A stretch of DNA of 64,000 nt from Promethearchaeota archaeon (lineage in GTDB: Archaea > Asgardarchaeota > Lokiarchaeia > Sigyniarchaeales > SOKP01): the NCBI GenBank assembly GCA_048938855.1, contig JBHLLT010000004.1, forward strand, positions 121,497 to 185,496, written 5' to 3'. A program made the position numbers and the translations under genes. Positions 1,362 through 30,360 of this stretch are shown here, one piece after another. Position 1 is the first letter of the stretch; each line of letters opens with the position of its first letter. A model generated the notes under the pieces. That model worked only from the letters and a program-made list of their open reading frames with translations, was not told where the DNA came from and did no database searches.

Positions 1362-1377
1362 TATTTAAAGAAAAAAA
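1362..1377 (-). promoter_or_regulatory. T-rich-element/TATA promoter of radA (island motif)
   Basis: minus strand TTTTTTTCTTTAAATA about 60 nt upstream of the ATG; same motif recurs before other island operons. Confidence 0.6.
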
Positions 1378-1518
1378 GTAAAGAAAAAGAAGGATATACA
1401 ACAAAAAGCTATATCAAAGAGAAAAAAATCCCAAATTTAGAAATTTATATTTCTTCTTTTTCTTGTTAAAAAAATAATTATATTAAAGCTATTTAAAGAA
1501 AAAAAAAAGGTAGATTAA

Positions 1519-1728
1519 TTATTCTTTTATTAAAAAATAACCAATTCCTCCTTGGGCTGATGTAACATTAATAACTTTAAATCCGGTTGAATCTATATGT
1601 TGTTCAATATATTGAAGAGCTTCTTGAAAGAAATCCTTCTTTTTGATTTTAATTTCTTTAGTTTCCATCGAACTATGGTGGAGTAATTGCTCAGTCATTC
1701 TGGAGAGAAAAATAATTTCAGTTTTCAT
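1519..1728 (-). CDS. small hypothetical protein
   Basis: 69-aa ORF, plausible composition, between SECIS terminator and radA promoter. Confidence 0.55.
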   Translation of the reverse strand: MKTEIIFLSRMTEQLLHHSSMETKEIKIKKKDFFQEALQYIEQHIDSTGFKVINVTSAQGGIGYFLIKE

Positions 1729-1811
1729 TCTTATCCCTTTTTTTTACAAAAATTTTACCTAAAATATCATCTAACAAATATTTATATCTATCTCATTCAT
1801 AGCGAAGGTTT

Positions 1812-1821
1812 AAAAAAAAAA
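1812..1821 (-). terminator. oligo-T terminator after SECIS-1
   Basis: 10 consecutive T on minus strand directly 3' of the element. Confidence 0.55.
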
Positions 1822-1886
1822 CTGAATCCCTCACAGGGATAATCATCCAATAACTACCATTTTTTTATTGGAATCATTTTTTCAAG
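1822..1886 (-). promoter_or_regulatory. SECIS element 1 (eukaryote-type core)
   Basis: RNA CUUGAA-AAA-AUGAU-UCCAAUAA-AAAAAUGGUAG-UUAUUGGA-UGAU-U-AUCCC-UGUGA-GGGAU-UCAG, starting right after the stop of a TGA-containing ORF. Confidence 0.85.
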
Positions 1887-1887
1887 T

Positions 1888-2091: not shown

Positions 2092-2204
2092 CACTTTTTT
2101 CTGTTTGAGAGTTTGTTTTAATCAAATATTAATTCGATTAAATATAAAAAATTTGACTATGAAATAATCGCAAGTAGAAATATTAAAAAGGAAAAATAAA
2201 AGTA

Positions 2205-2603
2205 TTATTCATTTAGAAGAATTTTTAATCCTTGAATAAGTTCTTGAGGAGTTACTCCATATAAAAGTGCCTGATGCATCATTTTAATGTTTATATCAAT
2301 TAGAGAATCTAAGTCTTTTCCCGGTTGAAATTTCACCATTAGTTTCTTGATAATTTTATATACTGAGAATTTATTTTGCTTTAATTTCCCAAAATAGCCT
2401 CCATATGCCAAGAAGAGGTTTGCCATGAGTTCAAGGTCTTCTTGTGAGTTATTTTTATAACACTCTTCGCATACCACTCCAAAACTAAGTCCTTCCTGAT
2501 ATATTGAAGCTCCTCGTTTGATTTCATTTCTACAAATCCCACATTTTATCACATCACGAGATAAATGGGTGGTCGGTTCTATATTAATTGAATTGATTTC
2601 CAT
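2205..2603 (-). CDS. zinc-finger hypothetical protein
   Basis: CGIC...CEEC pair; island promoter motif at 2625-2639. Confidence 0.75.
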   Translation of the reverse strand: MEINSINIEPTTHLSRDVIKCGICRNEIKRGASIYQEGLSFGVVCEECYKNNSQEDLELMANLFLAYGGYFGKLKQNKFSVYKIIKKLMVKFQPGKDLDSLIDINIKMMHQALLYGVTPQELIQGLKILLNE

Positions 2604-2737
2604 AATATTCTTTAATACTAGGTATATTTAAAGAAAAAAGGGTAGAAAATAGTTTGATAAATGTATATAAAACCCGAACTATTTTCACATTTGATGTCTA
2701 AATATTAAAATAAAATAATGATTTTAGCAAAATATTA

Positions 2738-4097: not shown

Positions 4098-4808
4098 TCA
4101 AATTAGTACTATTCCATTATGCTTTAGAATAAATTGAAAGTTCCATTTCATATCATTGAATTGTATAAGTAAATCTTTTTTTTCAGTATTAATTACTTTT
4201 CTCAACTCGATATCAATTGTCTGAATTCTATCATATAGCTTATAGAAGAAAGGTCTAAGCTTTTGGAGAGTTGGATTATAAGTAACTTCATGAATTATGA
4301 ACAAGATAATACCATTCCTTTTACAAAATATAATAAAAGGCATAAGAATTGTGTCGTAAAAGCTATCTAATATATATGAAACATGCTGTGGCGTATTAAA
4401 ATGAGTTATTTTATAACGTAAATGGTGGGATATATTATCAATAACCAAGTATTTAAGATATGGGGGTAAAATGAAATTTGAGTTTAATATTTTTTCTATA
4501 ATTGAAGATTGTTCTTCATATGTGCAGATTGGTCCTTTTTGAGGGATTATATAAATATTATTTACTACATATTCTAATTTTTGGGGATTATTTTCAAAAA
4601 TTTGTGATATCCGTTTTACTGGAAACCTTTCGCTTGCTTGAACCCAAATACATGAATCTTTATATGGTTCGTTTTCGGTTAAAAGGTTACCTATTAGCTG
4701 AAGTGCAAATGTAGTCTTACCGGTCCCAGATTCACCAGAGATAGAGAGTATATTATGATGAGAAAATAACTTTTCAATACCATGGAATAGGTTCAATTCT
4801 GTCTGCAT
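4098..4808 (-). CDS. RadB/Rad51-paralog-like RecA-family ATPase
   Basis: GESGTGKTTFALQL Walker A, YLVIDNIS Walker B, no N-terminal HhH; likely start MQTEL at 4808, coupled to the upstream stop. Confidence 0.8.
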   Translation of the reverse strand: MQTELNLFHGIEKLFSHHNILSISGESGTGKTTFALQLIGNLLTENEPYKDSCIWVQASERFPVKRISQIFENNPQKLEYVVNNIYIIPQKGPICTYEEQSSIIEKILNSNFILPPYLKYLVIDNISHHLRYKITHFNTPQHVSYILDSFYDTILMPFIIFCKRNGIILFIIHEVTYNPTLQKLRPFFYKLYDRIQTIDIELRKVINTEKKDLLIQFNDMKWNFQFILKHNGIVLI

Positions 4809-4809
4809 G

Positions 4810-5154
4810 TTAATCTTCTTCAAGCAGTTCAAGTACTTCTTGTTTGATTTTATCTATTTGTTGATCCTTTTCTTTTTTTTTTTCATTATCTACTTGATTG
4901 TCATTATTCTCTGAAGAAGAATTCATAAGCTGCTGTATCATCATTAACGTTATTAGGTCATCCATTCTACTGTCTTGCTGAGCATTTTTTCCACTAAAAA
5001 ATCCAAATACCCCTCTATTCGAACCCGAAGATCTCGATTTGAAAAACAAATAGACAATTATAAACAATACAATAATAATAATGGCATACATTGGATTCTG
5101 TTGATAGAAGATAAAAAATCCAAGTATTAACGCAATATAACAATATCCTTTCAT
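4810..5154 (-). CDS. small membrane protein (N-terminal TM hairpin)
   Basis: two hydrophobic segments then charged tail; GGTGGA SD-like site. Confidence 0.75.
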   Translation of the reverse strand: MKGYCYIALILGFFIFYQQNPMYAIIIIVLFIIVYLFFKSRSSGSNRGVFGFFSGKNAQQDSRMDDLITLMMIQQLMNSSSENNDNQVDNEKKKEKDQQIDKIKQEVLELLEED

Positions 5155-5175: not shown

Positions 5176-5919
5176 TTATTTTTCCTTCCATGGTTTTTTT
5201 GGTTTATAATGCTTACGAGAAAATTGCTTAAACTTGATCTTCTCTGGTTGTTTGAAATTTCTTGATTTTGCTTTAAATACGATTTTTCTAACCCCAATAA
5301 ACGAAAATTTTAACAGTAGGTAAATAGCGGTAATAGCTATATAATAAAAAAAATCTAAAATAAAGTAGATTTGAGTGAAAATTAAAAATAACCATAAAAT
5401 TAAAACTGATAGACAAATTAAGAGAATTTGATACCAGGAATAAGCTGGATCCTTTCTAAAAGAATGAGTTATATATTGCAAATCACCTTTAGAAGGAGAC
5501 GCAGTCAAAAGTAGGGAAATCAATATAAAGATTGCAATTATTTTCACTAAAGGATTAAAAGATGGAGTAAAAATTACTCCAAACCATAATAAAAAAATTA
5601 ACCACGTACTAATATAGAGGGGTGCGAAACTGATTATAATTGTTTGTAGAAAGCTTGGTGGTTTTTCAAGACTTATCGACCCATAAACGCCACCATTATT
5701 TTGTTCGGTTTTTTTCTGCCATTTGATATTAAAACTATATGGCATTTTGCCTACGACTAAACTCATTAAATAATGAGCAAGCTCATGGAAAAAGACGCCA
5801 AAAATACAAATTCGCAGAGCAATAGGCCTTAAAACTCCAGATCTATCACTATTTATGAAACTTGACATTATTAGAGATATGAATAATATGCCAAGAAAGA
5901 TCAATGGTTCTTCAATCAT
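5176..5919 (-). CDS. membrane zinc metalloprotease, M50-like
   Basis: HELAH motif, multiple TMs, SFAPL and PSKGD motifs. Confidence 0.75.
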   Translation of the reverse strand: MIEEPLIFLGILFISLIMSSFINSDRSGVLRPIALRICIFGVFFHELAHYLMSLVVGKMPYSFNIKWQKKTEQNNGGVYGSISLEKPPSFLQTIIISFAPLYISTWLIFLLWFGVIFTPSFNPLVKIIAIFILISLLLTASPSKGDLQYITHSFRKDPAYSWYQILLICLSVLILWLFLIFTQIYFILDFFYYIAITAIYLLLKFSFIGVRKIVFKAKSRNFKQPEKIKFKQFSRKHYKPKKPWKEK

Positions 5920-6375
5920 GAATTATTATACCATTCATCAAATATAAAGGAAAAAATGTGGAATTTAAATATTCCAAATTAGACTTAAATATAGAAAATA
6001 TCACCTTATTTATTAAAGACAACAAATTCAGAAAGAGAGGCCATTAAATTCGTTGTTTTGATACTGTGATATTAGAAATGGTAAGATTTTACTATACTTA
6101 TCTTCCAAATTTATATAAGAATCATTATAATTTTATATTTCCTTACGTTTATTGATAAGTTTTGGTTTAATCTCGTTTATTTCGAGCAATTTGCTTTCAT
6201 TGACAGAAATGTCAATGCAGAATAGAATTAAAAAAATCATAAAATTTTTGTAACTACCAAAAAACTACCCCTTGAAATTGAAGAGAAGAAAGCTTCTTTT
6301 CATCGATTAAATTTTGAAGAAAAGATTTAAAAACCAAACTCCTTCCTTATATTCTTTAGGTAAATAAAAAAAATA

Positions 6376-7617
6376 GTGATCAAAACAATGGCAACTTATA
6401 AAGCACTTCAAAATAGTCCGTTATCTATTATTAATTCTCACTTAGAATGTGATATTTGTGGTTCAGCAGATATTGTTGATACTTCAGAGGGATATGTATG
6501 TAGAAAATGTGGAATTGTTCTTGAAATTCAAAAACTCCAGTACAATCGACCTTATAATAAAGATTTGATTCAACATTCAATAGGGACTGGGAAAACTCAG
6601 ATTGGAAATAATCGCGAAAGATATGTCTCACCAAATTCAGAAAAGTTGAATAGATTAAACAGACAAAATTCAATAATTCCTAATGAACAAGCGATTATTG
6701 AAAGAGCTGATTTAGAGATATCAAGAATCTTCAGTGAATTAAACTTAAGTGAATTTGATACACTCAAAAAGATGGTTCTTAGTAAATTTAAAGAGATTAG
6801 ATCTAAATTAAGAAAAGGAGTAAAATTTCGTAATACGGATAAATTAGTTTCTATAATCATCTATTTTTGTCTTAAACTTCGAAACATATCGATAAATGCA
6901 ATTGAATTAATTAATGTTTCGAAGATTACCAAAAAGGAATTTAATGATTTTTGTTTACAAGTAAGAAAATTTATTCCTGAATATTTAGATCGAAACAGAC
7001 AAAAATATATTCTTAACCAGATTTTTGAGGTTTCTCAACATTTTGAACTTGGAATGGAATTCTTTCATCTTGCCCGGAAAATCTTAAAAAAATTATGGCA
7101 TGGCATCAAAGACACGACTGATGCCGCCCTCGCCGGATTAGTATCCTCAATCTCTCTTTTATGTTCTCAAAATGAAGAGGTAACTGTCAGTGCGATATGT
7201 AATCGATTAGGGATAAGAATGTCTACAATCCAAGCTCAAGTTAAAAAGAAAATTATTAATGAATTTCGTGTTGAAGGATTTATTAGTCTTATTAAATCTG
7301 CTGATCTTTTGGTACAAATTATGGATAAAATGGGATTAATTAACGACAGGCCTTTCATACGCCAAAAAGTGATAGCTGAAGCATCTGAAATTGTTGAGAT
7401 TGATGTTGGTAATGCTGACAGAGTGTTTAATGCCATTGATAACATAGATTATTATTATGCTTATTATGTAATTAAAGGTGATGATAATAAAGTAATATTT
7501 ATCAACGTAGCCATTTATCATTTTGATGATTCCTTTAAGAAAAATGAAAAGCCTCAAAGTATGGCATTTCTGGATTTTTTACTTTATAGGTACCCTCTTC
7601 CAACCGGACCTCCATGA
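6376..7617 (+). CDS. divergent TFB/TFIIB paralog with C-terminal extension
   Basis: Zn ribbon CDICGS..EGYVCRKCGIV, two cyclin-like repeats, VTVSAICNRLGIRMSTIQ HTH. Confidence 0.8.
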   Translation: MIKTMATYKALQNSPLSIINSHLECDICGSADIVDTSEGYVCRKCGIVLEIQKLQYNRPYNKDLIQHSIGTGKTQIGNNRERYVSPNSEKLNRLNRQNSIIPNEQAIIERADLEISRIFSELNLSEFDTLKKMVLSKFKEIRSKLRKGVKFRNTDKLVSIIIYFCLKLRNISINAIELINVSKITKKEFNDFCLQVRKFIPEYLDRNRQKYILNQIFEVSQHFELGMEFFHLARKILKKLWHGIKDTTDAALAGLVSSISLLCSQNEEVTVSAICNRLGIRMSTIQAQVKKKIINEFRVEGFISLIKSADLLVQIMDKMGLINDRPFIRQKVIAEASEIVEIDVGNADRVFNAIDNIDYYYAYYVIKGDDNKVIFINVAIYHFDDSFKKNEKPQSMAFLDFLLYRYPLPTGPP

Positions 7618-7774: not shown

Positions 7775-10702
7775 ATGAATAGAAAATATCAGCATAAATT
7801 ATATGTAATACTAATTCTTTTTAGTTTAAGTATAGTTCTTACACCTTTTATAAATAACCTTTCTGGACAAGGAAAAACACAAAATATCTTGTATAATGAA
7901 ATTCCATCTCAGGATTTAACTGCCTCTACGGGAGATAACAGCGAATTATTAGATACTATCTTCAATAATAAAATACTAGGATATAACAATAAGGGGTATT
8001 TTCCCCAAATTTATGAACCTTCTTTACAGGCTACATATTATGCTTTATATACACTCAGTAGCGTTGGTAAATTGCATGAGATTAATCAATCTGATGTAAT
8101 TGAATACATTATGGAACATTATGAAGAGGGTGAAACTCGATTCATGGATATTTTATCATACAGATATTTAGATACTGATTTTTCTAAAACATATTTTCCC
8201 TTAAGTACAGTACTAGAAGTAACATGTTATGCCATACTTTCGTTAGAAATTCTTAATGCATTAGATTCAATGGATGTCCAAACAATGATAGAGTTTATAT
8301 GGAGCTGTTATAATCCTAACAGTGGAGCATTTATTGGCCAACCTTATAATACAGTTTTAGAGGATGAATTTAAGATCGCGACAGCAGATAATACTTATTT
8401 CGCTGTTATCACATTAGATTTACTTATGGATGATTGGCTCGGGTATTCTACCCAGAAAGATTCAATAATAGCATTTATGAACGGACTTCAAATAACTGGT
8501 GAGGGTGGTTGGATTACAGGAGGTTTTGATAATGATGAGGAAGGAAATTTCAATTCACTTCTCTTCCATCATGAGCCTAATTTATTATCTTCATATTATT
8601 GCATTAAAACACTAGAAGTGTTTGGAATGGTATCGAGTATCAATGAACCAGAATTTCACCAGTTTTTAACTTATCTATATGATTCAAATTATTATTTTTT
8701 CCATATATCAGAAATAGATTATGGGGTAAATTATACAAATATTGTAGCAACATCTATTGGCCTAGAGTTGTCTAATATCACAAATTTTACAGAGATAGAC
8801 AGAGTCGGGACGCTATCATTTGTTTTAGATAATCGTAATTCATTAGGTAATTGGGATCAATCCACTACGGTAGTACTCCATGAACTTATTGATACTTATC
8901 AAATTATTCGTTCATTAAACAATACTGGAGAGATTAAACTTATATCTAATGAAGATAAAAATCAGATAGGAAATGCAACATTATTCTATCAATCATATAA
9001 AGGATTTTCACATCTTTCTATGGATTATACTTCAATGAACCTAATCTATACAATTACAAGCTCTTTTGATTTATATGATCGAACTTCAGATTTGGACATT
9101 CAGCAACTTTATAGGGCTATTAGAGATTCCTATAATAATTTTCCTCCCAATAAAGCTTCTAGGTATTTTTATGGCTTTTTACGTGAATATTCTTTAATTG
9201 GCTGGTTCCGCTCATACCCTATAGAATATTATACTTCTAGTTATAAGAATTATATTGAAGAGATTACTCAGATTAACTCTCATCAATCAACATACTATGC
9301 ATTAGAATCTCTAGTTAATCTTTTTAAATTAGATGATTTCGGAAGCACATATGATTTATTGGATTTGATGAGGGATATTGTGAAAACCCAATTTCTGAAC
9401 TATTCCTATTATGATACATTTGGCGGATTCTCTTCTCTCTTAAAATATACAGAAGATATGTCTGATGTTATTAATAGTAAGATATATTGTGATTATACTT
9501 ATTATGCTATCAAAAGTCTACAAATTCTATGTGATTATTTTGGATTACCTATAGATGAGACTGGTATTGATCTAACTGCTTTGTATACGTATATTGATAG
9601 ACATATTATTGAATCTCCCACGACTCTTTATTTCGATCCTAATTATGCCAACGATATCGAATCCATACTAAAAACTACATATTACATGTTTTATGTACTA
9701 GATGCAATTGATTTATACAATAAGAACAGTCAAAAAGTTAAAAATTATATTGAGACAAATCTCAACTATTCTAATATTGAAAACATATATTACAGCTATA
9801 AACTCTCAAAACTTTTAAATTTGAGTATTGAATTTGACTTTCATCAGATTCATGCTTTAATACAAGAACTTTATACAGAAGAATTTGATGAGTTTTATTC
9901 GACTCCTGCCAATAACCTACTTAACCAAGAAATCTTTCTCTGGATCTGTGATATGGCCCGAACAAGTCAAATTGAAATTGAAGCTTATTATTCTGATATA
10001 TGTCCATTAGGTGGGGTAAATTACATGGAAGCATCTCTATATAATCTTGTTTTAAGGAATTTTGGTACGTATATTACTTTCAAATTTGAAAGCGATCAGC
10101 TTGGGACCTTTATTTTTTCAAAATTAGCAAACAATTCATATATATACAACCTCTTGATTCCCTTAAGTTCAAATAGTTATCCAATAATTGAAGGATATTT
10201 AAGAGCATATGAAGGACTAGAATTAAAAGCAGAACAATATATCTGCTTTTCGACTAATTATTCCTTAGAATATGCTGTGAGTTCTCAGACAGAAATAAGT
10301 GGTTTAGTCTTTAAGATTAATGTTTCAGTTTTAACCAATAATGAGAAATATCCAATAACGAATGGAAATGCATTTGTTCGAATCTATAGAAATGATGTAT
10401 TTTTAGGTGAAATCCAAGCAAACCATCAAATTCTTTCAGATTATAGTATATTTAGTATTAATTATAATCCTATAAAAACAGGCCATTTTTACTTTGAATT
10501 TTATCTTAATGATGGTATTTCTGATTCTTTAATGAATATCAAAAATATCCTTCTTGATATAAATGAAATTTCAGAGAGTTACAAAGAGAATATTATAACT
10601 GCAATTCCATTAACGATAGTATTTATAGCGGTTCCTGGAACTATCTTTATTGTTTCATCTAAAAAGCTAAATAAATTAAAAAAAGAATCTAAGTATAGCT
10701 AA
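7775..10702 (+). CDS. large membrane-anchored surface protein with prenyltransferase/squalene-cyclase-like alpha-barrel repeats
   Basis: signal peptide, repeated GGF...(T/S)YY(A/C)xxxL units, C-terminal TM plus basic tail. Confidence 0.7.
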   Translation: MNRKYQHKLYVILILFSLSIVLTPFINNLSGQGKTQNILYNEIPSQDLTASTGDNSELLDTIFNNKILGYNNKGYFPQIYEPSLQATYYALYTLSSVGKLHEINQSDVIEYIMEHYEEGETRFMDILSYRYLDTDFSKTYFPLSTVLEVTCYAILSLEILNALDSMDVQTMIEFIWSCYNPNSGAFIGQPYNTVLEDEFKIATADNTYFAVITLDLLMDDWLGYSTQKDSIIAFMNGLQITGEGGWITGGFDNDEEGNFNSLLFHHEPNLLSSYYCIKTLEVFGMVSSINEPEFHQFLTYLYDSNYYFFHISEIDYGVNYTNIVATSIGLELSNITNFTEIDRVGTLSFVLDNRNSLGNWDQSTTVVLHELIDTYQIIRSLNNTGEIKLISNEDKNQIGNATLFYQSYKGFSHLSMDYTSMNLIYTITSSFDLYDRTSDLDIQQLYRAIRDSYNNFPPNKASRYFYGFLREYSLIGWFRSYPIEYYTSSYKNYIEEITQINSHQSTYYALESLVNLFKLDDFGSTYDLLDLMRDIVKTQFLNYSYYDTFGGFSSLLKYTEDMSDVINSKIYCDYTYYAIKSLQILCDYFGLPIDETGIDLTALYTYIDRHIIESPTTLYFDPNYANDIESILKTTYYMFYVLDAIDLYNKNSQKVKNYIETNLNYSNIENIYYSYKLSKLLNLSIEFDFHQIHALIQELYTEEFDEFYSTPANNLLNQEIFLWICDMARTSQIEIEAYYSDICPLGGVNYMEASLYNLVLRNFGTYITFKFESDQLGTFIFSKLANNSYIYNLLIPLSSNSYPIIEGYLRAYEGLELKAEQYICFSTNYSLEYAVSSQTEISGLVFKINVSVLTNNEKYPITNGNAFVRIYRNDVFLGEIQANHQILSDYSIFSINYNPIKTGHFYFEFYLNDGISDSLMNIKNILLDINEISESYKENIITAIPLTIVFIAVPGTIFIVSSKKLNKLKKESKYS

Positions 10703-10745
10703 TTCAAAATTTTTCCTTTTTATTTAATCACTATTTAAATGTTAT

Positions 10746-14429: not shown

Positions 14430-14523
14430 GCTTCTCTCACCTTTTAATATAGGATAGAATCTAAATTATATAAAGAAAAATATGGAGTCATTAGAGATTT
14501 TGTGATTTCTATTGACTTAATAC

Positions 14524-18414: not shown

Positions 18415-18657
18415 TTAATACGGATTTGTCCATTTTTTCATGAGTTCTTGAAAAGTTTGTGAATCTCTTGAAATCTCAATACTCTCAATAACTCCTAAGT
18501 TTCTAATTTTTAAGTCTGAATTAATATAGCAAATTAAGGCATGAAGAGGTTCTCCATGTAAATGAATATGGGGAAAATAGATATCAGTATTTATCTTTTT
18601 TGTAAATTGTATCTCAATCCCAAGAGTTATCCTTTCTTTACACAAGGGACATACCAC
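18415..18657 (-). CDS. small CxxC/His protein; true start probably upstream (non-ATG)
   Basis: CPLC...HIHLHGEPLHALICYI; frame open about 20 more codons to an in-frame TGA. Confidence 0.7.
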   Translation of the reverse strand: MVCPLCKERITLGIEIQFTKKINTDIYFPHIHLHGEPLHALICYINSDLKIRNLGVIESIEISRDSQTFQELMKKWTNPY

Positions 18658-18899
18658 ATTTTGTGATTTATATTTAACTTCCTTAATATCCCTAATTTTT
18701 CCAAAAACTATAACGATAATAGATCACTTGATAATTTCTATTCAATTAACTACTTATGGGAATGAGTCAATATAAAGAAAAAAAGTCAAAATATTTATTG
18801 TCAAAATTATCTTTACCTTCGATTTTTTCTTTAAATACCAACATCAATATTTAATCTTTAAATAGAAACAATTCCATATTCTAACCTTTTACGATATAT

Positions 18900-20897: not shown

Positions 20898-20900
20898 GAA

Positions 20901-22489: not shown

Positions 22490-22490
22490 T

Positions 22491-25400
22491 GTGACAAAAG
22501 ATTTCTCATATGAATCTGTATCAGGAATAACCAATTTTGGAAAGGAAGATAATAGAAAAAAATATATGATACTCGAAGAGAAAGAAGAAAAAAAAAGATA
22601 TTTAAGAATATGGAGCACAAATCCATCATTTAAAGATACGAATAATAAATTTTCATTAGTAAAAACTGCTTTTTTACTAATTTTATCTCTCTTTATTATT
22701 ATATCAATGTATATTTTAAATCAGCAACTAATTATTTCAATTATTACTGGACTTTTATGCGGGGTTTTATTTATCATAGTGTTTTATGATGAGATCTATA
22801 CATTGAAATACTTAATACCTTTTGTATTTAAGAACACTGTATCTTTTAATCCATTTGAGAATATTGTTTTTTGGTTAAACAAAAAAGATTCTGCTACATT
22901 ATACCTCTCTAACAGAAGAGATACGGTTCACATGGCTATTAGAATATTTCAGATAACAGTGATTCCCGAAAATATTCATTCTGCTATTCATCAGTTTATA
23001 AAAGCGCTGAGTTCTAAAAATTTAAGGTTATCATATTCATATCAAGTTATTCAAAAACCAATTATTTCTACATTGCAAGAAAATATGTCAAAGGAGACAG
23101 CTATAAGTTCCTTGGAGTCAAGAGAAGCAAAAATCTATTTCTCTATATTTTATAATTCAATTGGATTACTTACTAACCATAAATTGGATCAAATACAATA
23201 TTTTATCAAAAAACATTCTGTAGATCTTAAAAGTAATCTTGTTAGTAATTTTCACCACTTTAAAGTTAAAATACTCACAGGAAATTCATTAGTTAATGCT
23301 TTAAGAACATTTTTCATTCAAGAGAAGTCTGATCAAGATAATTTTGAAAGCAAAAAAGAAACTTTGAAAGAATTTAAACCAAGATTTTTAGCTAAATTCT
23401 TAATGTGGATTACGTTGATTGTTTATTTTGATTTTGTATTTTTTTCAATGGAACTGTTTGTTTTATACATCATTTTCATCAATTTGGGCTTAATTACAAT
23501 ACTGGTGTTAATTTGGTGGAGATCAATATTATTCCAATATACAAAATCTAAATTATTACAAGATGATGATATTTTAATTATAAATCCATTCAAGAATGTT
23601 TTTTTTTACCATTTTAGACAGTTCCCCTATACATTATTTGTTCATATTAACAATCAAATTCTCATTGGAATGAAGATGGTTAATCTCAAGTATATTTATC
23701 AAACCCCCTTTTGTCTTCTTAGTAAGTTTATTGAAAGTCTGAATAATCATAAAATATCTTTTAGTTATACACTAAAAAATCAACCCATTGATTATTATGA
23801 GTTCTATAAAAAAGGGTTGAAATACATCAATGAAAAACATAAATCACTCATACTTTGGAGAGATGATACGAAAATTAAAGATGCCATTCAAGCTGAACAT
23901 TGGTTAAGTTACCGTTATGGAATGTGGTATAGTATGCTTACTATGACCATAAATAGTTATAGATTCTCCAATTCACTTGATAATGGTATAATTTCCGAAA
24001 TGGAAGATGAGTTAACTATTAAGATTGATGCCCTAAGAGGAGCATTTAATATTAACTTTCAAGGCTATGAAATTGAGGATTTAAAAGCACACAATTTAAT
24101 TTCAGGGTACATGTTTTCGACCTTGAAGAACAACTTATTTCAGTTAATTGGTAGCCACCTTAATTATGTCATGTTACAAGGAACATCTATGTATCCCCTG
24201 TCAACGATTGTAGATATTCTTAAAAAGGGGACTAAAACAAAAATCGCAGCTGAATTTAACACTCCCCTCTATTTAGAAAATCACATCACTATTGGACACA
24301 CAATTAATACTGAAGTATTAGAACCTGAAATACCTGTAGGGTTTACTTTAGACCAATTGAAGAATTTACTTATAGTAAATGGGAAATCAGAAACAAGAGA
24401 TACCATTTCTATGAAAATTGTTTTAGAATTGATAGAGTCAAAAGTTCCTTCTCTAATTTTTGATTTTACAGGAAACTGGTCTAAGTTGTACAGCTATTTT
24501 GAAGATTCTACGTTTAAAAAGGATATATTGCATTTTAAATATGGAAGTGCTTTCATAATCGATCCTACTAAATCAGACATCCCTTATGATCCTCATAATA
24601 CAGATTATTTAGAATTTGTATTTGATGCGTTTGGATTAGCGTTTAAGAAAGGTGAGAGAACAATTGAAATGTTTCGAAATACTCTCCAAAAAAATCCTGA
24701 TATGGATTTGGGTTCAATTCGTATGGCCTTACAGAATCAAAGTGAATGGGAAAAAAGCCCAATAAATGACACTTTGCTTTCATTGTTTTCAGATTTTACC
24801 CAAGATGATTTGAGTTTCTTTCAAGTGATACAAAAAGACAGTATCGTAGCAAATCAATTCATTCAAAATTCAAAGACTATCATAATCGACCTTTCTTTTC
24901 TAAGAGAATTAAATAAGAAAATATTTTTAACGTTCATTATTCTGGCGAAAATTATTCATTATGTTAAAGAAAACAGAGATTTCCATGAAAAATTTATAAT
25001 AATTCCAAGTATTGATATTTTTTTTGATTCCTACTTCCTAGAGTTAAAAAGGAATTATGATAAAGTAGATCTTTTCTTAAAGCCTTTACTAGAAAATAAT
25101 TTTGGTCTTATTCTGTCAGCAAATCAAATACATTATCTCCATACCAACTTTTTACTTTATTTTAATAATATCATCTCACTTAAAGCCACTGATGTCAGAG
25201 ATGTTTCAATTTTGCGTAATCTAATGAATTTACAGGAAATTGAGGGCATTGGATATTATACTAAGAGCCGAAATCAGACATACCAAATAGGGTATCTAAA
25301 GAATATGAAAGATAATGAAGTTTTAATTCGGAGAGAAGATATTGACCAACCATTTCCGGCATACATAGAATGGAAAGAGATATCTGAAAAAAATCCGCTC

Positions 25401-26324
25401 TCGTATGATAAAATAGTGAAGTTAATGGAACAACAGGGATACGATATAAAATTTACAGAGAGAAGAATATTAGAACAAGCAAAAAAAATGCTTTTTGAGA
25501 TAGATCTAGGACACTATATTATTTATTTGGATGAGGTTATCAAATTTTTAGATGAGATTCAAACAATTGACCAGATTGGAAATCTCTATAAGCATAAGCT
25601 AAGATCTCAATTAAAAGAGATAATTTATCCTAAAGCATCCCAAAAAACTAGTAAAAAAGAACACATTAAAAGAATTAGAGATGATCTATTAAACATTTTA
25701 ATCAAACACGGATATTTAGTAGAAGACCATCCAAGAAGAGCGAGTGGTTCAGAAACTTTAAGAACTTCTTATTCTATAGGAGATAGATATCAAGAAGCAT
25801 TAAATGATTATTATAAAACAAAAGGACATACGCAAACAGATGTGAATATTGAAATATTAGAAAAATCTACAGAAAAATCAAATTTAGATAATATATTTCA
25901 AGAAAAAACTCGAAAATATATTGTTCAACAAAAAAATTTAAAAGATGCCTTAATGCGCGAGTTTTCTGATTTTAATTATGATTTATTTAAAATTTATAGT
26001 TATATTAACCGAGGAAATTATAAAGGTGCTTTAAAAATAGAGCAAGGTTTAATTAATAGATTTTTAAATAATGTAATTTCACATTATTATAATATAGAAA
26101 GTCCTATATCTCATGATACATTAGAGAGGTTCCTAACTCTATTAGGAAGTATTGCAGATTTTCCTTTAACAAGACAAGAACTCTTAGGTTATATAGAACA
26201 TTACCAAGTAATAGATTTAAAAAATAGCAATTTAGAAGTTTTGGCTAGAGAAATTTATCAATTTATATATAATTTCTTTGATGAAATTCAGTACTATATA
26301 TTTGAGGGGAAAAATAATAACTAG
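22491..26324 (+). CDS. membrane-bound VirB4/HerA/FtsK-superfamily-like protein with degenerate Walker motifs
   Basis: ITIG..., NLLIVNGKSETRD (Walker A position), SLIFDFTGNW, TIIIDLS, FIIIPSID (Walker B position), GLILSANQ; two TM hairpins in N-terminal half. Confidence 0.65.
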   Translation: MTKDFSYESVSGITNFGKEDNRKKYMILEEKEEKKRYLRIWSTNPSFKDTNNKFSLVKTAFLLILSLFIIISMYILNQQLIISIITGLLCGVLFIIVFYDEIYTLKYLIPFVFKNTVSFNPFENIVFWLNKKDSATLYLSNRRDTVHMAIRIFQITVIPENIHSAIHQFIKALSSKNLRLSYSYQVIQKPIISTLQENMSKETAISSLESREAKIYFSIFYNSIGLLTNHKLDQIQYFIKKHSVDLKSNLVSNFHHFKVKILTGNSLVNALRTFFIQEKSDQDNFESKKETLKEFKPRFLAKFLMWITLIVYFDFVFFSMELFVLYIIFINLGLITILVLIWWRSILFQYTKSKLLQDDDILIINPFKNVFFYHFRQFPYTLFVHINNQILIGMKMVNLKYIYQTPFCLLSKFIESLNNHKISFSYTLKNQPIDYYEFYKKGLKYINEKHKSLILWRDDTKIKDAIQAEHWLSYRYGMWYSMLTMTINSYRFSNSLDNGIISEMEDELTIKIDALRGAFNINFQGYEIEDLKAHNLISGYMFSTLKNNLFQLIGSHLNYVMLQGTSMYPLSTIVDILKKGTKTKIAAEFNTPLYLENHITIGHTINTEVLEPEIPVGFTLDQLKNLLIVNGKSETRDTISMKIVLELIESKVPSLIFDFTGNWSKLYSYFEDSTFKKDILHFKYGSAFIIDPTKSDIPYDPHNTDYLEFVFDAFGLAFKKGERTIEMFRNTLQKNPDMDLGSIRMALQNQSEWEKSPINDTLLSLFSDFTQDDLSFFQVIQKDSIVANQFIQNSKTIIIDLSFLRELNKKIFLTFIILAKIIHYVKENRDFHEKFIIIPSIDIFFDSYFLELKRNYDKVDLFLKPLLENNFGLILSANQIHYLHTNFLLYFNNIISLKATDVRDVSILRNLMNLQEIEGIGYYTKSRNQTYQIGYLKNMKDNEVLIRREDIDQPFPAYIEWKEISEKNPLSYDKIVKLMEQQGYDIKFTERRILEQAKKMLFEIDLGHYIIYLDEVIKFLDEIQTIDQIGNLYKHKLRSQLKEIIYPKASQKTSKKEHIKRIRDDLLNILIKHGYLVEDHPRRASGSETLRTSYSIGDRYQEALNDYYKTKGHTQTDVNIEILEKSTEKSNLDNIFQEKTRKYIVQQKNLKDALMREFSDFNYDLFKIYSYINRGNYKGALKIEQGLINRFLNNVISHYYNIESPISHDTLERFLTLLGSIADFPLTRQELLGYIEHYQVIDLKNSNLEVLAREIYQFIYNFFDEIQYYIFEGKNNN

Positions 26325-26676
26325 TGACCAGAGAAAAGAATTTCTTTATGAAATGTTAGAAAAGATTGTTTTTAATGAAGCTCAATTAACAATCTTGAAA
26401 AATGGAATTGAAAAGGTAGCAAATGGTTATCTTACTCCAAAAGATTTAAGAAAACAAATTATAGAACTAAGAGTGAAACTCATTGAAGACTTGATAGAGT
26501 TTTTCCCATTTTACCTTAAACAGAACTTAATTGAAAATAAGTTATTAAATTTTACTGATTCAAATGAATCATCATTAATATCAGCAGAATTAGAGGAGAG
26601 AAATAATTTACTTGAAGAAGTTGGATGTCGAATAAATAATATCTATAGAAAATTAAAAGAAAAATACAATGTATAA
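26278..26676 (+). CDS. hypothetical helical protein
   Basis: operonic ORF overlapping ATPase end; start uncertain. Confidence 0.6.
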   Translation: MMKFSTIYLRGKIITSDQRKEFLYEMLEKIVFNEAQLTILKNGIEKVANGYLTPKDLRKQIIELRVKLIEDLIEFFPFYLKQNLIENKLLNFTDSNESSLISAELEERNNLLEEVGCRINNIYRKLKEKYNV

Positions 26677-26802
26677 AAAATATATTTAAAGGAAAAAAGA
26701 TCCGTAATTCTATTTCTTTTTTATTTAAAAGTACTTGCCAAAATTTTAGTTAAATAATATTGAAACTCTATATTTGACTGAAAAAAGAGAAAACAAAATC
26801 AT

Positions 26803-28146
26803 ATGATCTCAGGAGAATTAATTTCAAATTCAGTAATATCTCTTAATGAATTATTTCCTAATTTCACAAATCAATTCATTATACCATTTGAAAAGGTAGT
26901 AGAACTAGATATCCATAATGGGATGCATCTAAATTTTAAACTATGTGACAGAGATCAAAAAAACAAAGTACCTCCTATTTTACGCTTAGCTAACATAGAA
27001 GATGCAGAGGAAATTGTTGGGATTTACAAGGAATTATATAATTGTACATATCCATACAAAGAAATGGAAGATATTAATGAAGTCCAAAAGATGATACAAA
27101 ATCCATCATTTAAATGGATAATTTATCAAGACGCTTCTTTTAAAATTGCAGGTTGTATAACTTTTGTCTTAGATTTTAACAATAGAAGAGGTTACATTCG
27201 GGGATTTATGCTTAAAAAGGAATATCAAGGATATATTGATATAACAAAAGCGATGATCGGCTCGATGTTATGCATGATCCATAGTTTTAAAGATCGAATA
27301 TTTAATTGGTATGTAGAAAACAGAACTGCTCATGCAAAATCCCAATATTCAATGTATGTATGTGGAATTGCCCCGATAGGATTTTATCCAAATAAAGATA
27401 TTTTTGAGGGAAAAGTCGAATCTGATTTAATGCAAATTTTGTATGATGAGAAAGCATTGCGTCAGTATAGATCTCCAAAAATACCTACATTAATTCATGC
27501 TGTTGAGGGATGTTATTTATTTTCTCATAAACGGTATAATTTAGGTAACTATAAAATAAAATCCCCCAAAATCGTTCTTGATTACAAAAAAATAAAAGAA
27601 TTAAAAACCAATTTAAAAAGAAATATACAAAAAGATGATTTTGGGTATGAAACTATATTATTTTCATTTAAAAAAGCAAATTCTTATTTTCAATTTTTGT
27701 ACACGCCTACAGTTTCAAATTTTGAAAAAACTATCTATGAAGTTTCATCCTTAGAAGAATTATTTGTATTTGCCCAAGAATTTATGAGATGGAAAAAAAA
27801 ATTAAGGGCTCGCTATTGTGAAATATTTGTTTCAGCCTATCAACCTGAACATCAACAAATTTTTTATGACGCAGGATTGTCTCCTCGAGGATATATTCCC
27901 AGCTGGATTTTTAATAATGAAGATCATGTGTTCGAGGATTTTATTCTTTTTAATTGCCATGATGGACAAATTGGAGACAATATAGAGTTAATCCAAGAAG
28001 GGTGGGATCTACTTGATGTCTTTCATATTAAGAGCTCACAATCATTAGTAAATAGGGAAATGAAATCAATTAATTCTAACTGTAAAAAGATATTAGAGCT
28101 AAAAAGGAAAAAAACACACGTGGGTCTTAATTTAGGGGAATTCTAA
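26803..28146 (+). CDS. tandem GNAT-fold acetyltransferase
   Basis: LRLANIEDAEEI, KKEYQG acetyl-CoA motif, second GNAT-like half (QQIFYDAGLSPRGYIP). Confidence 0.7.
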   Translation: MISGELISNSVISLNELFPNFTNQFIIPFEKVVELDIHNGMHLNFKLCDRDQKNKVPPILRLANIEDAEEIVGIYKELYNCTYPYKEMEDINEVQKMIQNPSFKWIIYQDASFKIAGCITFVLDFNNRRGYIRGFMLKKEYQGYIDITKAMIGSMLCMIHSFKDRIFNWYVENRTAHAKSQYSMYVCGIAPIGFYPNKDIFEGKVESDLMQILYDEKALRQYRSPKIPTLIHAVEGCYLFSHKRYNLGNYKIKSPKIVLDYKKIKELKTNLKRNIQKDDFGYETILFSFKKANSYFQFLYTPTVSNFEKTIYEVSSLEELFVFAQEFMRWKKKLRARYCEIFVSAYQPEHQQIFYDAGLSPRGYIPSWIFNNEDHVFEDFILFNCHDGQIGDNIELIQEGWDLLDVFHIKSSQSLVNREMKSINSNCKKILELKRKKTHVGLNLGEF

Positions 28147-28166
28147 GAAATTTTTGTTTTTTTTTA

Positions 28167-28985
28167 TTATTTCTTGTATAAACCTAAGAATATTATTATA
28201 AACACAAATATGTCTACTGATTCAACTATTATGATATACATTGCTACTTCACCTAAAATATTCTGTATAATTGGTCTTAATATATTTGAAATCAAATATA
28301 AAAAGAATCCAAGTGTTAAAACGCCTGGTTTAACAATAGTAAGACGCCTTAATCTGTAAGCTAAGAAAAAGATATACACAATTCCAATTAATGATGGAAT
28401 AACAATAGCAGGTAAAATCATACCCATAATTGTATTATTTGGAGCTATAAGAATTGCAACAGATTCAATACATATAATAATCAGTATAAGAGTAACTCGC
28501 AATTTATTCATATATTCTTTATTTTTCAATTTTTGATATCTATCTTCTAGTCTAAAAAAGATAATTTCGAAGCCCAGGTAAATTAAGGGGGCTACTTCAA
28601 ATATTATGGTAAAAAATCTGAATTTAAGGAACAATAAAACAATATCATCACTAAATGTAAAAAAAGTAAGATCCCAAAGTAAATCAATTACTTTTCCAAA
28701 AATTAGAATAAGGAAGAACAAACCTAATAGGAAGGGGATATCTGATAAATATTGTGCTTCTTGTTTAAACCATTTATTAAATAAATAAACAGTTGTGATA
28801 ATTAAGATTATTATTCTAACGGATATTACTAACAGGACCTCAAATGCGCCTTCATAGATTTGAAAGGCTTGAATAATAAGTGGCCAGTTAAGAAGATATA
28901 GAACACCAATACTAATAATAGCTAAAATAATGCATACAAGTAATAGTAATTTATAACGTCCTTTTTTTGATAATTCCATATTCAT
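28167..28985 (-). CDS. polytopic membrane protein
   Basis: 7-8 hydrophobic segments. Confidence 0.75.
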   Translation of the reverse strand: MNMELSKKGRYKLLLLVCIILAIISIGVLYLLNWPLIIQAFQIYEGAFEVLLVISVRIIILIITTVYLFNKWFKQEAQYLSDIPFLLGLFFLILIFGKVIDLLWDLTFFTFSDDIVLLFLKFRFFTIIFEVAPLIYLGFEIIFFRLEDRYQKLKNKEYMNKLRVTLILIIICIESVAILIAPNNTIMGMILPAIVIPSLIGIVYIFFLAYRLRRLTIVKPGVLTLGFFLYLISNILRPIIQNILGEVAMYIIIVESVDIFVFIIIFLGLYKK

Positions 28986-29028
28986 TGATATAAATTAGTC
29001 TTTTTAAATTGAACTAAAATAAATATAC

Positions 29029-30165
29029 CTATTTTTCAAATAAATGTATTATCGATTCTATTTGCCTTTTATTTGGATCTTGTTCAATTTGGGTATGGAT
29101 TAGTTCCATAAGTTTAGATTGCGAGATACTAATACATTCTAAAAAATCACTTACTTCTTTTTCTTTAAATTTATTCTTAAGGATAAGTGGAACTACAATC
29201 CTAAGTGTTCTCAGCCACTTTTTCCTTTCTTGAGGATTTTGGCGTACTAGTTCTGCATATTGATATGCATACAGAATTCCTCCATATCTATGTAAATCAT
29301 AAAATGTAGCTGCATGTACTACGTTACAATTCGTTAAAAGTGGATCCGCATGGCCTTTTTTGATGTAATTTTTAGATTCAACAAGATTGACAATCTTTTG
29401 TTCTCTATACGGTATTACGTGATATGGTAAAAGGACTCTAGGTAGGTTTTCAATTTTTAATTCCTCATCATTCAAGTAGCATTCTGAATCAGACTGATCA
29501 AAGAAAAGATTATTAAATAATATCATAGGTTTCCACACGTGAATTATTTCATTTCTTGGTATTTCATAATAATATCGAAAAATTTGATCAGGAGAATATC
29601 CAAATAAAACATAAGGAATATCTTTTTTTATCGCTTGTTTTACCACAATACTGTGGATTAGATCGGAACAAGAGTCACATATAACTCTCGTTAAAAAAGT
29701 ATCATTTGATTTATGATTGTAAAAATGCCATTTATAGAGCTTAGTAAATGTAGGTATGCAATCTTCTATAAGTAAATGATCTACATTAATCTTTGCTAAT
29801 GTATCTTTCATATTTTGCTTCGCAATTTGAGTCATGAAGCCCGTATCAGAAGTTACTGCTAAGGGGTTTAAACCTAAATTATTTACAAGATAGTCTAACA
29901 GAGCCGTAGAATCTTTTCCTCCAGAATATCCTAAGATACAATCATATTGAACATTTCCATGGTTTTTTTGCATATTTTTAACAATCCGATTCCAATCTAT
30001 AAGAGCTTTTTCTCTTATTTTAGAATCAATTTTAGTTCGTGACCAGTTGATATTTTTATGTTCATGATCAGAGCAAAAATCACACAACCCTTCTGAATTT
30101 AAATGAACTCCTAAGAATCCATCTGGTAATATGCATTTTCTACAAATGTTTTGTTGCTCTAACAT
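29029..30165 (-). CDS. N-type (PP-loop) ATP pyrophosphatase, WbpG-like amidotransferase family
   Basis: CRKCILP, YDCILGYSGGKDS, CDSC. Confidence 0.8.
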   Translation of the reverse strand: MLEQQNICRKCILPDGFLGVHLNSEGLCDFCSDHEHKNINWSRTKIDSKIREKALIDWNRIVKNMQKNHGNVQYDCILGYSGGKDSTALLDYLVNNLGLNPLAVTSDTGFMTQIAKQNMKDTLAKINVDHLLIEDCIPTFTKLYKWHFYNHKSNDTFLTRVICDSCSDLIHSIVVKQAIKKDIPYVLFGYSPDQIFRYYYEIPRNEIIHVWKPMILFNNLFFDQSDSECYLNDEELKIENLPRVLLPYHVIPYREQKIVNLVESKNYIKKGHADPLLTNCNVVHAATFYDLHRYGGILYAYQYAELVRQNPQERKKWLRTLRIVVPLILKNKFKEKEVSDFLECISISQSKLMELIHTQIEQDPNKRQIESIIHLFEK

Positions 30166-30360
30166 ATAAACACCTTTTATAAACTACATAATTCTGTTCT
30201 ATTTAAAGGAAAAATAAATATAAGCTGTAAAAAAGAAGGCAAATTTTGATACTAAAAATTCAGCTAAGTTTCAAGAAAATTTGATAAAAAGAATTTTTTT
30301 CTTTAAATAAAAATACCATAGATATACATCAAAGTTTCACAATATAATAGCAAGATTACA

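Follow-up and report, generated by a model that had tools for sequence, protein, structure and literature searches.

The window analysed here, a 64,000-nt stretch of the genome of a Lokiarchaeia-type Asgard archaeon (genome G000, 3.95 Mb), contains most of a ~45-kb chromosomal gene island that extends from about 108 to 153 kb of contig C70 (window -13,500 to 31,500). The transcription units of this island include divergent second copies of RadA, FEN1, RPA-like and Hel308-like genes, other helicases, an Arf-like GTPase operon, several small Zn-ribbon and unknown proteins, and a membrane operon with a HerA/VirB4/CedB-like protein, as well as a very divergent copy of the initiation factor TFB (P0001). 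The coordinates of the promoter motifs and associated features are collected in Table 1.

Table 1. Motif sites and associated features of the island, in window positions (negative positions lie left of the window); promoter assignments are made from sequence, and distances run from the end of the TATA box to the ATG
Position	Strand	Feature	Distance and conservation
-9157, -6464, -3974, -2508		Four strong motif sites
1362..1377	-	T-tract/C/TATA promoter of the RadA-like gene (73-1302, minus strand)	59 nt; orthologous sites lie 58-60 nt from the ATG in six other genomes
1490..1508	-	Second upstream copy of the motif (T10 C TTTAAATA), 11 nt after the stop of ORF 1519-1728; tandem promoter or terminator plus promoter	21.7 bits; among the genomes compared, seen only in G000
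2625..2639	-	Promoter of ORF 2205-2603 (132 aa, unknown)	21 nt, leaderless geometry; 21 nt in six genomes
5941..5956	-	Promoter of operon 5176-5919 / 4810-5154 / 4098-4832 (includes a P-loop NTPase); divergent from the TFB gene	21 nt; gene pair with its motif kept even in the reduced G171 copies
6199..6216	+	Inverted repeat TTGACA-N-TGTCAA upstream of the TFB gene; candidate operator	Conserved in G132 and G207
6283..6333	+	Upstream region of the TFB gene: imperfect inverted repeat (6283-6301), then purine-rich GAAGAAAAG (6316-6324) fused to ATTTAAAAA (6325-6333); no T-tract motif	Conserved in orthologues down to 44-47% protein identity
6376..7617	+	Divergent TFB paralog (413 aa, P0001): Zn ribbon, two cyclin folds, changed helix-turn-helix (IRMSTIQAQVKKK), C-terminal extension of about 90 aa
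7665..7681	+	Weak motif variant (TTTTTTTCCTTTCTATT) upstream of the 975-aa alpha-toroid protein gene (7775-10702)	93 nt; 13.3 bits; the G216 orthologue has a full motif 48 nt upstream
10710..10726	+	Variant site, TATA part TTTTTATT, upstream of operon 10746-11372 / helicase 11365-13536 / 13540-14064	22 nt to the ATG at 10749; below 12 bits; the orthologue on contig C14 of G207 has the motif
14467..14480	-	Promoter of small ORF 14205-14429, with GGTGA (Shine-Dalgarno-like) in between	37 nt; conserved in five other genomes
18769..18784	-	Promoter of 18415-18657 and the Hel308-like helicase 15865-18249; one half of a divergent promoter pair	111 nt
18823..18837	+	Promoter of the five-gene membrane operon 18900-26676, which includes an HhH protein and a 1277-aa HerA/VirB4/CedB-like protein
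26683..26698	-	Orphan copy with no ORF of 50 aa or more downstream; possible antisense or small-RNA promoter	Motif and downstream sequence conserved in G132
29158..29171	+	Site inside an ORF, probably chance
30200..30214	-	Promoter of 29029-30165 (PP-loop-like ATPase, weak Pfam hit), with AGGTG in between	34 nt
30294..30309	+	Promoter of 30361-31518 (385 aa, unknown); last unit before the flanking Ldh_2 gene

Gene content of the island and its divergent TFB

We first asked whether P0001 belongs to the archaeal TFB/eukaryotic TFIIB family. Its N-terminal Zn ribbon is present, with C25, C28, C42 and C45 invariant in 57 homologues, and aligns to the ribbons of the host TFBs, although the Pfam match (PF08271, E 3.7e-4) falls below the curated cut-off. 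The two cyclin repeats are not detected by Pfam (PF00382), but hhalign against the 12 canonical TFBs of the genome gives 97.9% (E 3e-13) over 250 columns spanning the Zn ribbon, both cyclin folds and the helix-turn-helix. The AlphaFold2 model has a core with pLDDT 85-93, while the C-terminal extension is modelled with low confidence, and the top Foldseek hits are all TFIIB, TFB or Brf, including Pyrococcus woesei TFB (1d3u_B, TM 0.77, rmsd 3.3 over 202 residues). Collectively, these results identify the protein as a true but very divergent TFB. The C-terminal helix-turn-helix, which in this family is the element that reads the BRE (PMC4581349, PMC6101591), is present and aligns, but it does not carry the canonical recognition residues: the recognition helix reads MSTIQAQVKK instead of TEVTIRNRYKE, and is among the most conserved parts of the family.

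We also examined whether the island could be an integrated mobile element, such as an ICE or provirus. No integrase or capsid hit was found by Pfam in the ORFs scanned, no conjugation signature genes were found, there is no att-like repeat apart from the two flanking Ldh_2 paralogs (70% identical), and no relative occurs in IMG/VR contigs. The cluster is syntenic in at least seven related genomes, and in G207 it lies between the same flanking genes as here, although copy number does vary from 0 to 6 per genome and broken copies exist. The term island should hence not be read as a recently acquired mobile element. For the 1277-aa protein of the membrane operon, no Pfam hit was obtained, and a protein-atlas feature search placed it nearest to DUF87/HerA/TrwB/CedB clusters (score 0.89, 178 shared features), which is a lead only.

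Distribution and conservation of the T-tract motif

A sequence-only reading of the window had listed 11 sites of a T5-7-C(C)-TTTAWATA element. All 11 are present at the coordinates and strands given there, so that this observation is confirmed, and it extends beyond the window. Ten of them match the strict pattern T{5,}C{1,2}TTTAWATW, the eleventh being the weaker variant at 10710-10726. Distances from the end of the TATA box to the start codon are 21, 21, 22, 34, 37, 51, 59 and 62 nt, with 111 nt for the minus-strand site at 18770.

Equal frequency of the motif at random intergenic sites had been named beforehand as an outcome that would speak against a regulon, and we compared the island with the remainder of the genome. 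The strict motif occurs 42 times genome-wide, and 15 of these hits lie in the island (window -9157 to 30309), which makes up 1.1% of the genome (binomial p = 5e-19). Of the 15 island hits, 13 are intergenic and mostly point at genes, whereas 20 of the 27 hits elsewhere lie inside ORFs. Among intergenic TATA-like boxes, 13 of 39 in the island are preceded by T4C, compared with 11 of 2575 elsewhere (Fisher p = 4e-19). A weight matrix trained only on other genomes likewise places 10 of its 19 best hits in G000 (20 bits or more) within the island. These results exclude chance, and define a promoter class distinct from the housekeeping class and confined to a defined gene set.

Comparative analysis further supports a promoter element. 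Across 11 regions, 60 of 82 sites have a co-oriented ORF start 10-130 nt downstream, against 23 when the sites are flipped, and only 6 lie inside ORFs although 87% of the DNA is coding. Sites are conserved at orthologous positions in genomes whose proteins are 45-90% identical, and stand at fixed distances from the start codon (21 nt in 11 cases, 58-60 nt for the RadA-like gene) while the flanking sequence has diverged. An A lies 22 nt after the TATA box in 79% of sites, and in 11 sites it is the A of a leaderless ATG. All information lies at the BRE and TATA positions, with nothing further upstream conserved, placing the T-tract and C where the BRE should be. The base before the TATA box is a C in 98% of sites, although the search pattern itself required it.

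We next compared the distribution of the motif with that of the island TFB. In seven genomes of the same genus, 8-10 strict hits occur per 40 kb around the TFB gene, and the two also co-occur in genera g2, g4, g5 and g6, for a total of five genera. The complete or near-complete genomes without this TFB (G138, G144 and G156) show no clusters and no excess, whereas G150 and G291 show small motif clusters although no TFB-like gene was found in them; these two assemblies are 94% and 88% complete, and the clusters lie on short contigs. In two more distant lineages, both the recognition helix and the promoter differ. In genus g3, the helix is MSTINYQV and the base before the TATA box is mostly A (8 A, 3 C and 1 G in 42 kb, against 0 in 115 kb of control), while in G288, from sister family f2, the helix is ASTVYSYL and two orthologous promoters read ATGTGTT-TATA with no T-tract. 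This possible co-variation rests on two lineage comparisons with few promoters, and the TFB and the motif always travel with the whole island, such that co-occurrence cannot separate this TFB from other island proteins.

The sequence-only reading had also claimed that ordinary promoters of this genome have an A-rich upstream element, which is only weakly supported. Its two examples do exist, near 51186 and 62439, but are anecdotal. A4-TATA is 2:1 sense over antisense, but host upstream regions are A-skewed anyway, and no crisp host BRE consensus could be derived. The motif is therefore non-canonical relative to other archaea and to a weak A-bias here.

A putative island-specific initiation system

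We consider it most likely, with moderate confidence, that T5-7 C(C) TTTAWATA is the core promoter of the island and that it is read by the island's own TFB. In this view, the TTTAWATA part is an ordinary TATA box for host TBP, the T-tract plus C fills positions about -37 to -30, where TFB normally reads the BRE, and transcription would start 22 nt after the TATA box at the conserved A. Nearly every transcription unit of the island carries this box, the exception being the TFB gene itself, with its purine-rich, host-type promoter preceded by conserved inverted repeats. A signal would turn on the TFB gene through the host machinery, and the new TFB, with its rewritten C-terminal recognition helix, would then recognise the T-tract/C element together with host TBP and recruit RNA polymerase to all island promoters, working as a private, sigma-factor-like switch. 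The specificity, position, orientation and conservation of the motif, the homology of the TFB, and the co-occurrence of the two are established by our analysis, whereas recognition of the element by this TFB, its binding to TBP-DNA and recruitment of RNA polymerase, the start sites, and the regulatory cascade are inferred in the absence of binding, start-site or expression data. The sequence-only interpretation, that the divergent TFB reads a pyrimidine tract in place of a purine-rich BRE much as an alternative sigma factor would, is thus partly supported: the promoter element, its position, its confinement to one island and the divergent TFB are all supported by computation, whereas the assignment of this TFB, rather than one of the 12 canonical TFBs or another island protein, as the factor that binds is inferred.

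Among alternatives, the least unlikely is that the motif is the island's promoter but is used by the host machinery, either by one of the canonical TFBs or by TBP/TFB with no base-specific BRE reading, with the rigid T-tract acting through DNA shape or by keeping chromatin proteins off. The island TFB would then have another role, for instance as a competitor, a repressor, or a factor for only a few promoters. The 12 canonical TFB paralogs and 2-3 TBPs of the host, the canonical TATA part, the inseparability of the TFB from the island, and the small clusters in G150 and G291 are compatible with this reading. However, the near-invariant C and the fixed register argue for base-specific reading, the motif is almost absent from other intergenic regions of the host, the island TFB keeps a complete and strongly conserved DNA-binding architecture, and helix and promoter both differ in g3 and f2. 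It is more doubtful still that the 15-mer is mainly an operator for an island-encoded regulator that is not a TFB, for example one of the small Zn-ribbon proteins, sitting on the BRE/TATA region to silence or activate the whole island. Repressors that cover BRE/TATA are common in archaea, but the element is asymmetric, has no dyad or repeat, and stands in one fixed register with the TATA box and the inferred start without conserved sequence outside the BRE and TATA positions, and a dedicated TFB with a changed helix-turn-helix is encoded alongside. Finally, an oligo-T terminator or insulator that happens to abut ordinary TATA boxes, or a dispersed repeat of a mobile element, is very unlikely: archaeal termination uses T-runs and three sites (1490-1508, 10710-10726 and 14467-14480) lie 8-44 nt after the end of a co-directional upstream gene, but at least five window sites (the divergent pairs 18769/18823 and 30200/30294, and 5941) have no such gene to terminate, termination explains neither the invariant C nor the fixed register with the TATA box and the ATG, and the unconserved flanks argue against a repeat unit.

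A further-reaching possibility, which remains tentative, is that Lokiarchaeia carry an orthogonal TFB-BRE pair, in which a rewired TFB reads a pyrimidine-tract BRE that no housekeeping TFB uses, giving a eukaryote-type initiation apparatus a true sigma-factor-like private code, and in which helix and promoter have co-evolved in at least three states (T6C, T-tract-A and TGTGTT). We found no publication on this system. Whether archaeal TFB paralogs have distinct promoter specificities, as sigma factors do, is still largely open, and the specificity difference predicted here is large and easy to test (a T-tract plus C against a purine-rich element), is tied to one factor with a rewritten recognition helix, and comes with natural variants in g3 and f2 suited to swap experiments. 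If correct, it would give a clean system for studying BRE recognition and promoter orientation in a TBP/TFB machinery, could provide an orthogonal expression switch for archaeal genetics, and would identify a co-regulated second recombination and DNA-translocation programme in Asgard archaea.

Comparison with known systems

In the TFB2 regulon of Sulfolobus acidocaldarius (bioRxiv 10.64898/2026.09.06.749720), a full-length TFB paralog is similarly associated with the promoters of a defined gene set, so that a general factor is used as a programme switch. That study reports the TATA boxes and BREs of TFB2 and TFB1 promoters as similar, differing in spacing, whereas here the BRE position holds a crisp sequence of opposite strand polarity and the regulon is one contiguous island. 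In the TFB3 DNA-damage response of Sulfolobales, comprising Ups pili and Ced DNA import (PMC6101591), an alternative TFB controls genes for DNA exchange and repair, including a VirB4/HerA-type ATPase (CedB), and the present island has a second recombination toolkit and, as an atlas lead only, a CedB-like protein. TFB3 lacks a DNA-binding motif, while the protein here keeps the Zn ribbon, both cyclin folds and a helix-turn-helix, with no link to UV or DNA damage on present evidence.

TFB/TFIIB homologues are also encoded on archaeal mobile elements, namely thaumarchaeal integrative-conjugative elements (PMC6563490) and Asgard wyrdviruses (bioRxiv 10.1101/2021.07.29.453957), either next to VirB4-type or type IV secretion-like genes or on an element that needs its own gene-expression programme. 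The passages of these papers that we consulted mention no element-specific promoter, and the present cluster differs in its synteny and in that no integrase, capsid or conjugation signature genes were found in the ORFs scanned. The resemblance to bacterial alternative sigma factors is by analogy only, in that a dedicated initiation factor plus a private promoter sequence gives an orthogonal regulon, and the second helix-turn-helix of TFB on the BRE is the structural counterpart of sigma region 4 on the -35 box (PMC4581349); the protein family context differs, as TBP still supplies TATA binding and no anti-factor is known. Compared with canonical archaeal TFB on BRE/TATA (P. woesei TFBc-TBP-DNA, PDB 1D3U/1AIS), the island TFB has the same fold and domain order, and its putative promoters the same geometry, with the element directly upstream of a TATA box about 26 nt before the start, but the recognition helix is rewritten, the B-reader region is divergent, about 90 residues are added at the C-terminus, and the upstream element is a pyrimidine tract rather than a purine-rich one.

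The motif and the island that carries it

The window is positions 121497-185496 of contig C70. We first asked whether the motif was present and more frequent than expected. All eleven copies listed by the sequence-only reading were found in the sequence as described, so its observation is confirmed, and the motif extends beyond them. Searching both strands of the whole genome (hereafter G000; 3.95 Mb, 30% G+C, 93 contigs, 97% complete) with the strict pattern T{5,}C{1,2}TTTAWATW, we identified 42 hits, 15 of which fall in a single stretch of contig C70 that begins about 9 kb to the left of the window and makes up 1.1% of the genome (binomial p = 5e-19). Thirteen of these 15 hits are intergenic, whereas 20 of the 27 hits outside the island lie inside ORFs, as expected for chance matches in an AT-rich genome; seven intergenic strict copies outside the island could be either remote members of the regulon or chance matches. 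Among intergenic TATA-like boxes, 13 of 39 in the island are preceded by T4C, against 11 of 2575 elsewhere. A weight matrix built only from sites in other genomes places 10 of its 19 best G000 hits (20 bits or more) in the island, and also finds weaker variants in front of further island genes.

The island is bracketed by two full-length Ldh_2 (malate/L-lactate dehydrogenase family) paralogs that are 70% identical and lie in the same orientation. It encodes an Arf-like GTPase operon, a trypsin-like protease, an OB-fold RPA-like protein, a FEN1/XPG-like nuclease, a RadA-like recombinase, a P-loop NTPase, a TFB-like protein, a 975-aa protein with an alpha-alpha toroid domain, two superfamily-2 helicases (one of them Hel308-like), an HhH protein, a 1277-aa protein and many small ORFs. 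The recombination and repair genes are divergent second copies, with housekeeping RadA, FEN1, RPA-like and Hel308-like paralogs, 31-40% identical to them, lying elsewhere in the genome on contigs C34/C93, C81, C31 and C34. The 1277-aa protein has no Pfam hit and is nearest in the protein atlas to HerA/DUF87/TrwB/CedB-type ATPase clusters (score 0.89, 178 shared features), which is a lead only, but one by which its operon may encode a membrane DNA-translocation machine.

The whole island is syntenic in seven related genomes (G255, G132, G177, G207, G192, G216 and G228), with proteins 40-90% identical, and in G207 it lies between the same flanking genes as here, although only one Ldh_2 copy was found there in the 40 kb examined, at the right flank; the Ldh_2 duplication might mark how the island was inserted or rearranged. 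In G207 the island is also split between two loci (contigs C21 and C14) with complementary gene sets, each keeping its own TFB paralog (56% and 49% identical to this one) and its own motif copies.

Coordinates of the island, its genes and its motif copies (window coordinates unless a contig or locus is named; L001 is the locus holding the left flank of the island; distances are from the motif to the start codon at orthologous genes)
Position	Strand	Feature	Observation
C70:108,000-153,000 (approximate)		Island	Bracketed by the two Ldh_2 paralogs
C70:112339-151805 (window -9157 to 30309)		Cluster of strict motif hits	15 of 42 genome-wide
L001:5286-6437	-	Ldh_2 paralog	Left of the island
L001:12286-13233	-	RPA-like gene	Divergent second copy
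L001:14306-15400	-	FEN1-like gene	Divergent second copy; weaker motif variant
-6422 to -5802		Island gene	Weaker motif variant
-2453		Island gene	45-49 nt
73-1302	-	RadA-like gene	58-60 nt; divergent second copy with an extra C-terminal HhH domain
2205-2603		ORF	21 nt
5176-5919		ORF	21 nt
6199-6216		Inverted repeat TTGACA-N-TGTCAA	Conserved; candidate operator
6283-6301		Imperfect inverted repeat centred on AAGCTT	Conserved; candidate operator
6376-7617		TFB paralog	No T-tract box
7775		Island gene	Weaker motif variant
14205-14429		ORF	36-45 nt
15865-18249	-	Hel308-like gene	Divergent second copy
18900-26676		Membrane operon	Includes the 1277-aa protein
22491-26324	+	1277-aa protein	No Pfam hit
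26683-26698	-	Full-strength motif copy	Points into the 3' end of the membrane operon; no ORF of 50 aa or more downstream
31545-32651	-	Ldh_2 paralog	Right of the island
C70:358-372	-	Intergenic strict copy	Outside the island
C70:2326-2341	+	Intergenic strict copy	Outside the island
C20:49157		Intergenic strict copy	Outside the island
C62:32990		Intergenic strict copy	Outside the island
C63:5735		Intergenic strict copy	Outside the island
C79:157949		Intergenic strict copy	Outside the island
C90:3920		Intergenic strict copy	Outside the island

Promoter geometry and contrast with the host

Next, we applied a slightly relaxed pattern to eleven regions, comprising G000 and ten loci in eight other genomes. 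Of 82 sites, 60 have a co-oriented ORF start 10-130 nt downstream, against 23 when the orientation is flipped, and only 6 lie inside ORFs although 87% of the DNA is coding. At orthologous genes the distance to the start codon is fixed, while sequence on either side of the motif has diverged freely. The promoters of the RadA-like gene and of 2205-2603 are examples of the T6C-TTTAAATA type. The base 22 nt after the TATA box is A in 79% of sites, and in the 21-nt cases it is the A of the ATG, which is the geometry of a leaderless mRNA. With that inferred start, the TATA box spans -29 to -22 and the T-tract plus C spans about -37 to -30, which are the usual places of an archaeal TATA box and BRE. 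No conserved sequence lies further upstream, so there is no separate activator site. For the motif copy that points into the membrane operon, the motif and about 45 nt downstream are conserved in G132, and it may be an antisense or small-RNA promoter.

To compare these promoters with those of the host, we sought a host consensus using TATA-anchored, GAAAA-anchored and start-codon-anchored profiles as well as an EM motif search on 1774 upstream regions, all of which gave only low-complexity A/T signals; tRNA upstream regions were too few to help, as aragorn found only 13 tRNAs. In 2445 host upstream regions, A4-N(0-2)-TTTAWAT is twice as common in sense as in antisense (103 against 51), whereas a six-pyrimidine run before TTTAWAT shows the opposite bias (17 against 40). 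In the 21 island upstream regions of the same set, none has the purine type and 7 have the T4C type in sense. The sequence-only reading had proposed that ordinary promoters here carry an A-rich upstream element, and the two examples it offered do exist, but host upstream regions are A-skewed overall, which may explain part of the orientation bias, so that a purine-rich host BRE remains weakly supported. Most host genes are led by a G-rich Shine-Dalgarno-like box at -14 to -8, whereas several island genes have the leaderless geometry (ATG 22 nt after the TATA box), such that the island differs from the host in inferred translation-start style as well.

A divergent TFB and its distribution across genomes

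The ORF encoding the TFB paralog has only a sub-threshold Zn-ribbon hit in Pfam and no BLAST-level similarity to the 12 host TFBs, and its closest database relative is labelled Candidatus Lokiarchaeia. Nevertheless, a profile of 57 homologues aligns to the host TFBs with 97.9% probability (E 3e-13) across the Zn ribbon, the linker, both cyclin repeats and the C-terminal helix-turn-helix. The AlphaFold2 model has a confident core (pLDDT 85-93), and its best structural matches are TFIIB in pre-initiation complexes and P. woesei TFB bound to TBP and BRE/TATA DNA (1d3u_B, TM 0.77, rmsd 3.3 over 202 residues); about 90 extra residues follow and are modelled with low confidence. The helix that aligns with the canonical recognition helix (TEVTIRNRYKE in the host TFBs) reads MSTIQAQVKKK, with S283 and Q286 invariant and the neighbouring residues nearly so. 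The second helix-turn-helix of TFB is established to read the BRE in the major groove (PMC4581349, PMC6101591). The 12 canonical host TFB genes carry two PF00382 repeats each and are accompanied by 2-3 TBP genes (one a single repeat in a 436-aa frame), a large set of general factors for a non-halophile; the genome also has Arf-family GTPases. From the label of the closest database relative, the Arf-family GTPases and the 12 canonical TFB genes, we read it as a Loki-type Asgard archaeon.

The TFB gene itself is the one unit with no T-tract box in any genome examined. Its upstream region is conserved even between proteins only 44-47% identical, and contains two inverted repeats, candidate operators for whatever triggers the island, followed by GAAGAAAAG fused to ATTTAAAAA, a purine-rich promoter of the type taken here as that of the host. 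This arrangement suggests a two-step cascade.

Using the island TFB as a protein query (E at most 1e-10), we found the family in 53 of 68 sampled genomes of the window's own family, in 1 of 7 genomes of the sister family, and in none of 226 genomes from 28 other families of the phylum. Copy number varies from 0 to 6 per genome, and some copies are broken. A profile search of the single-contig sister-family genome G213 found no TFB-like gene, only a RadA-like fragment. Around the TFB gene there are 8-10 strict motif hits per 40 kb in same-genus genomes and up to 9 per 20 kb in four other genera (g2, g4, g5 and g6), compared with a background in G000 of about 0.007 per kb. Three genomes that lack the gene (G138, G144 and G156) show no clusters or excess, although two others without a detected gene (G150 and G291, with assemblies 94% and 88% complete) show small clusters on short contigs. 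In the reduced copies of genome G171, the motif persists in the divergent spacer next to the TFB gene.

We also observed possible co-variation between factor and promoter. In G147, from a further genus (g3), the orthologous island is present but rearranged, the TFB helix reads MSTINYQV, and the promoters keep the T-tract, but the base before the TATA box is mostly A (8 A, 3 C and 1 G in 42 kb, against none in 115 kb of control sequence from the same contig), whereas the counts in G000 are 0 A, 11 C and 1 G. In the sister-family genome G288 (contig C183) the helix reads ASTVYSYL, and the RadA-like and FEN1-like promoters read ATGTGTT fused to a TATA box, with no T-tract. A similar RTGTT-TATA type is enriched in the g3 loci (in G147, G040 and G129). 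These are two lineage comparisons with few promoters, and are suggestive rather than proof.

Interpretation and related systems

The interpretation offered by the sequence-only reading, that the divergent TFB reads this element like an alternative sigma factor, is supported in part. The reading of the motif as an island-specific promoter class at the BRE/TATA position is well supported, and we hold it with high confidence on the basis of its clustering, orientation, spacing and conservation. That the island's own TFB reads it is the best available mechanism but is unproven; recognition of the element by this protein, the transcription start sites and the two-step cascade are inferred, and taken together with the promoter reading we consider the full explanation somewhat more likely than not.

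Of the alternatives considered, we rejected a recent mobile element as the main reading, as no att repeats, no integrase or capsid domains and no composition anomaly were found, and no relative of the TFB occurs in IMG/VR. We therefore read the island as a resident, vertically inherited cluster, although an ancient or domesticated element is not excluded. A terminator or repeat reading of the motif was also rejected, with at least five window sites lying in divergent intergenic regions, where a terminator role for the T-run makes no sense.

Our literature search found no paper on this system. The nearest published analogues are the Sulfolobus TFB2 regulon, whose promoters have a similar BRE with different spacing, and the TFB3-dependent Ups/Ced response, in which TFB3 lacks the helix-turn-helix (PMC6101591). 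TFB homologues are also known on thaumarchaeal conjugative elements and in Asgard wyrdviruses. Alternative-TFB regulation is thus already known; what is new in the island described here is the form it would take, with a predicted difference in promoter specificity that is unusually clear and directly testable, where TFB2 promoters differ in spacing.
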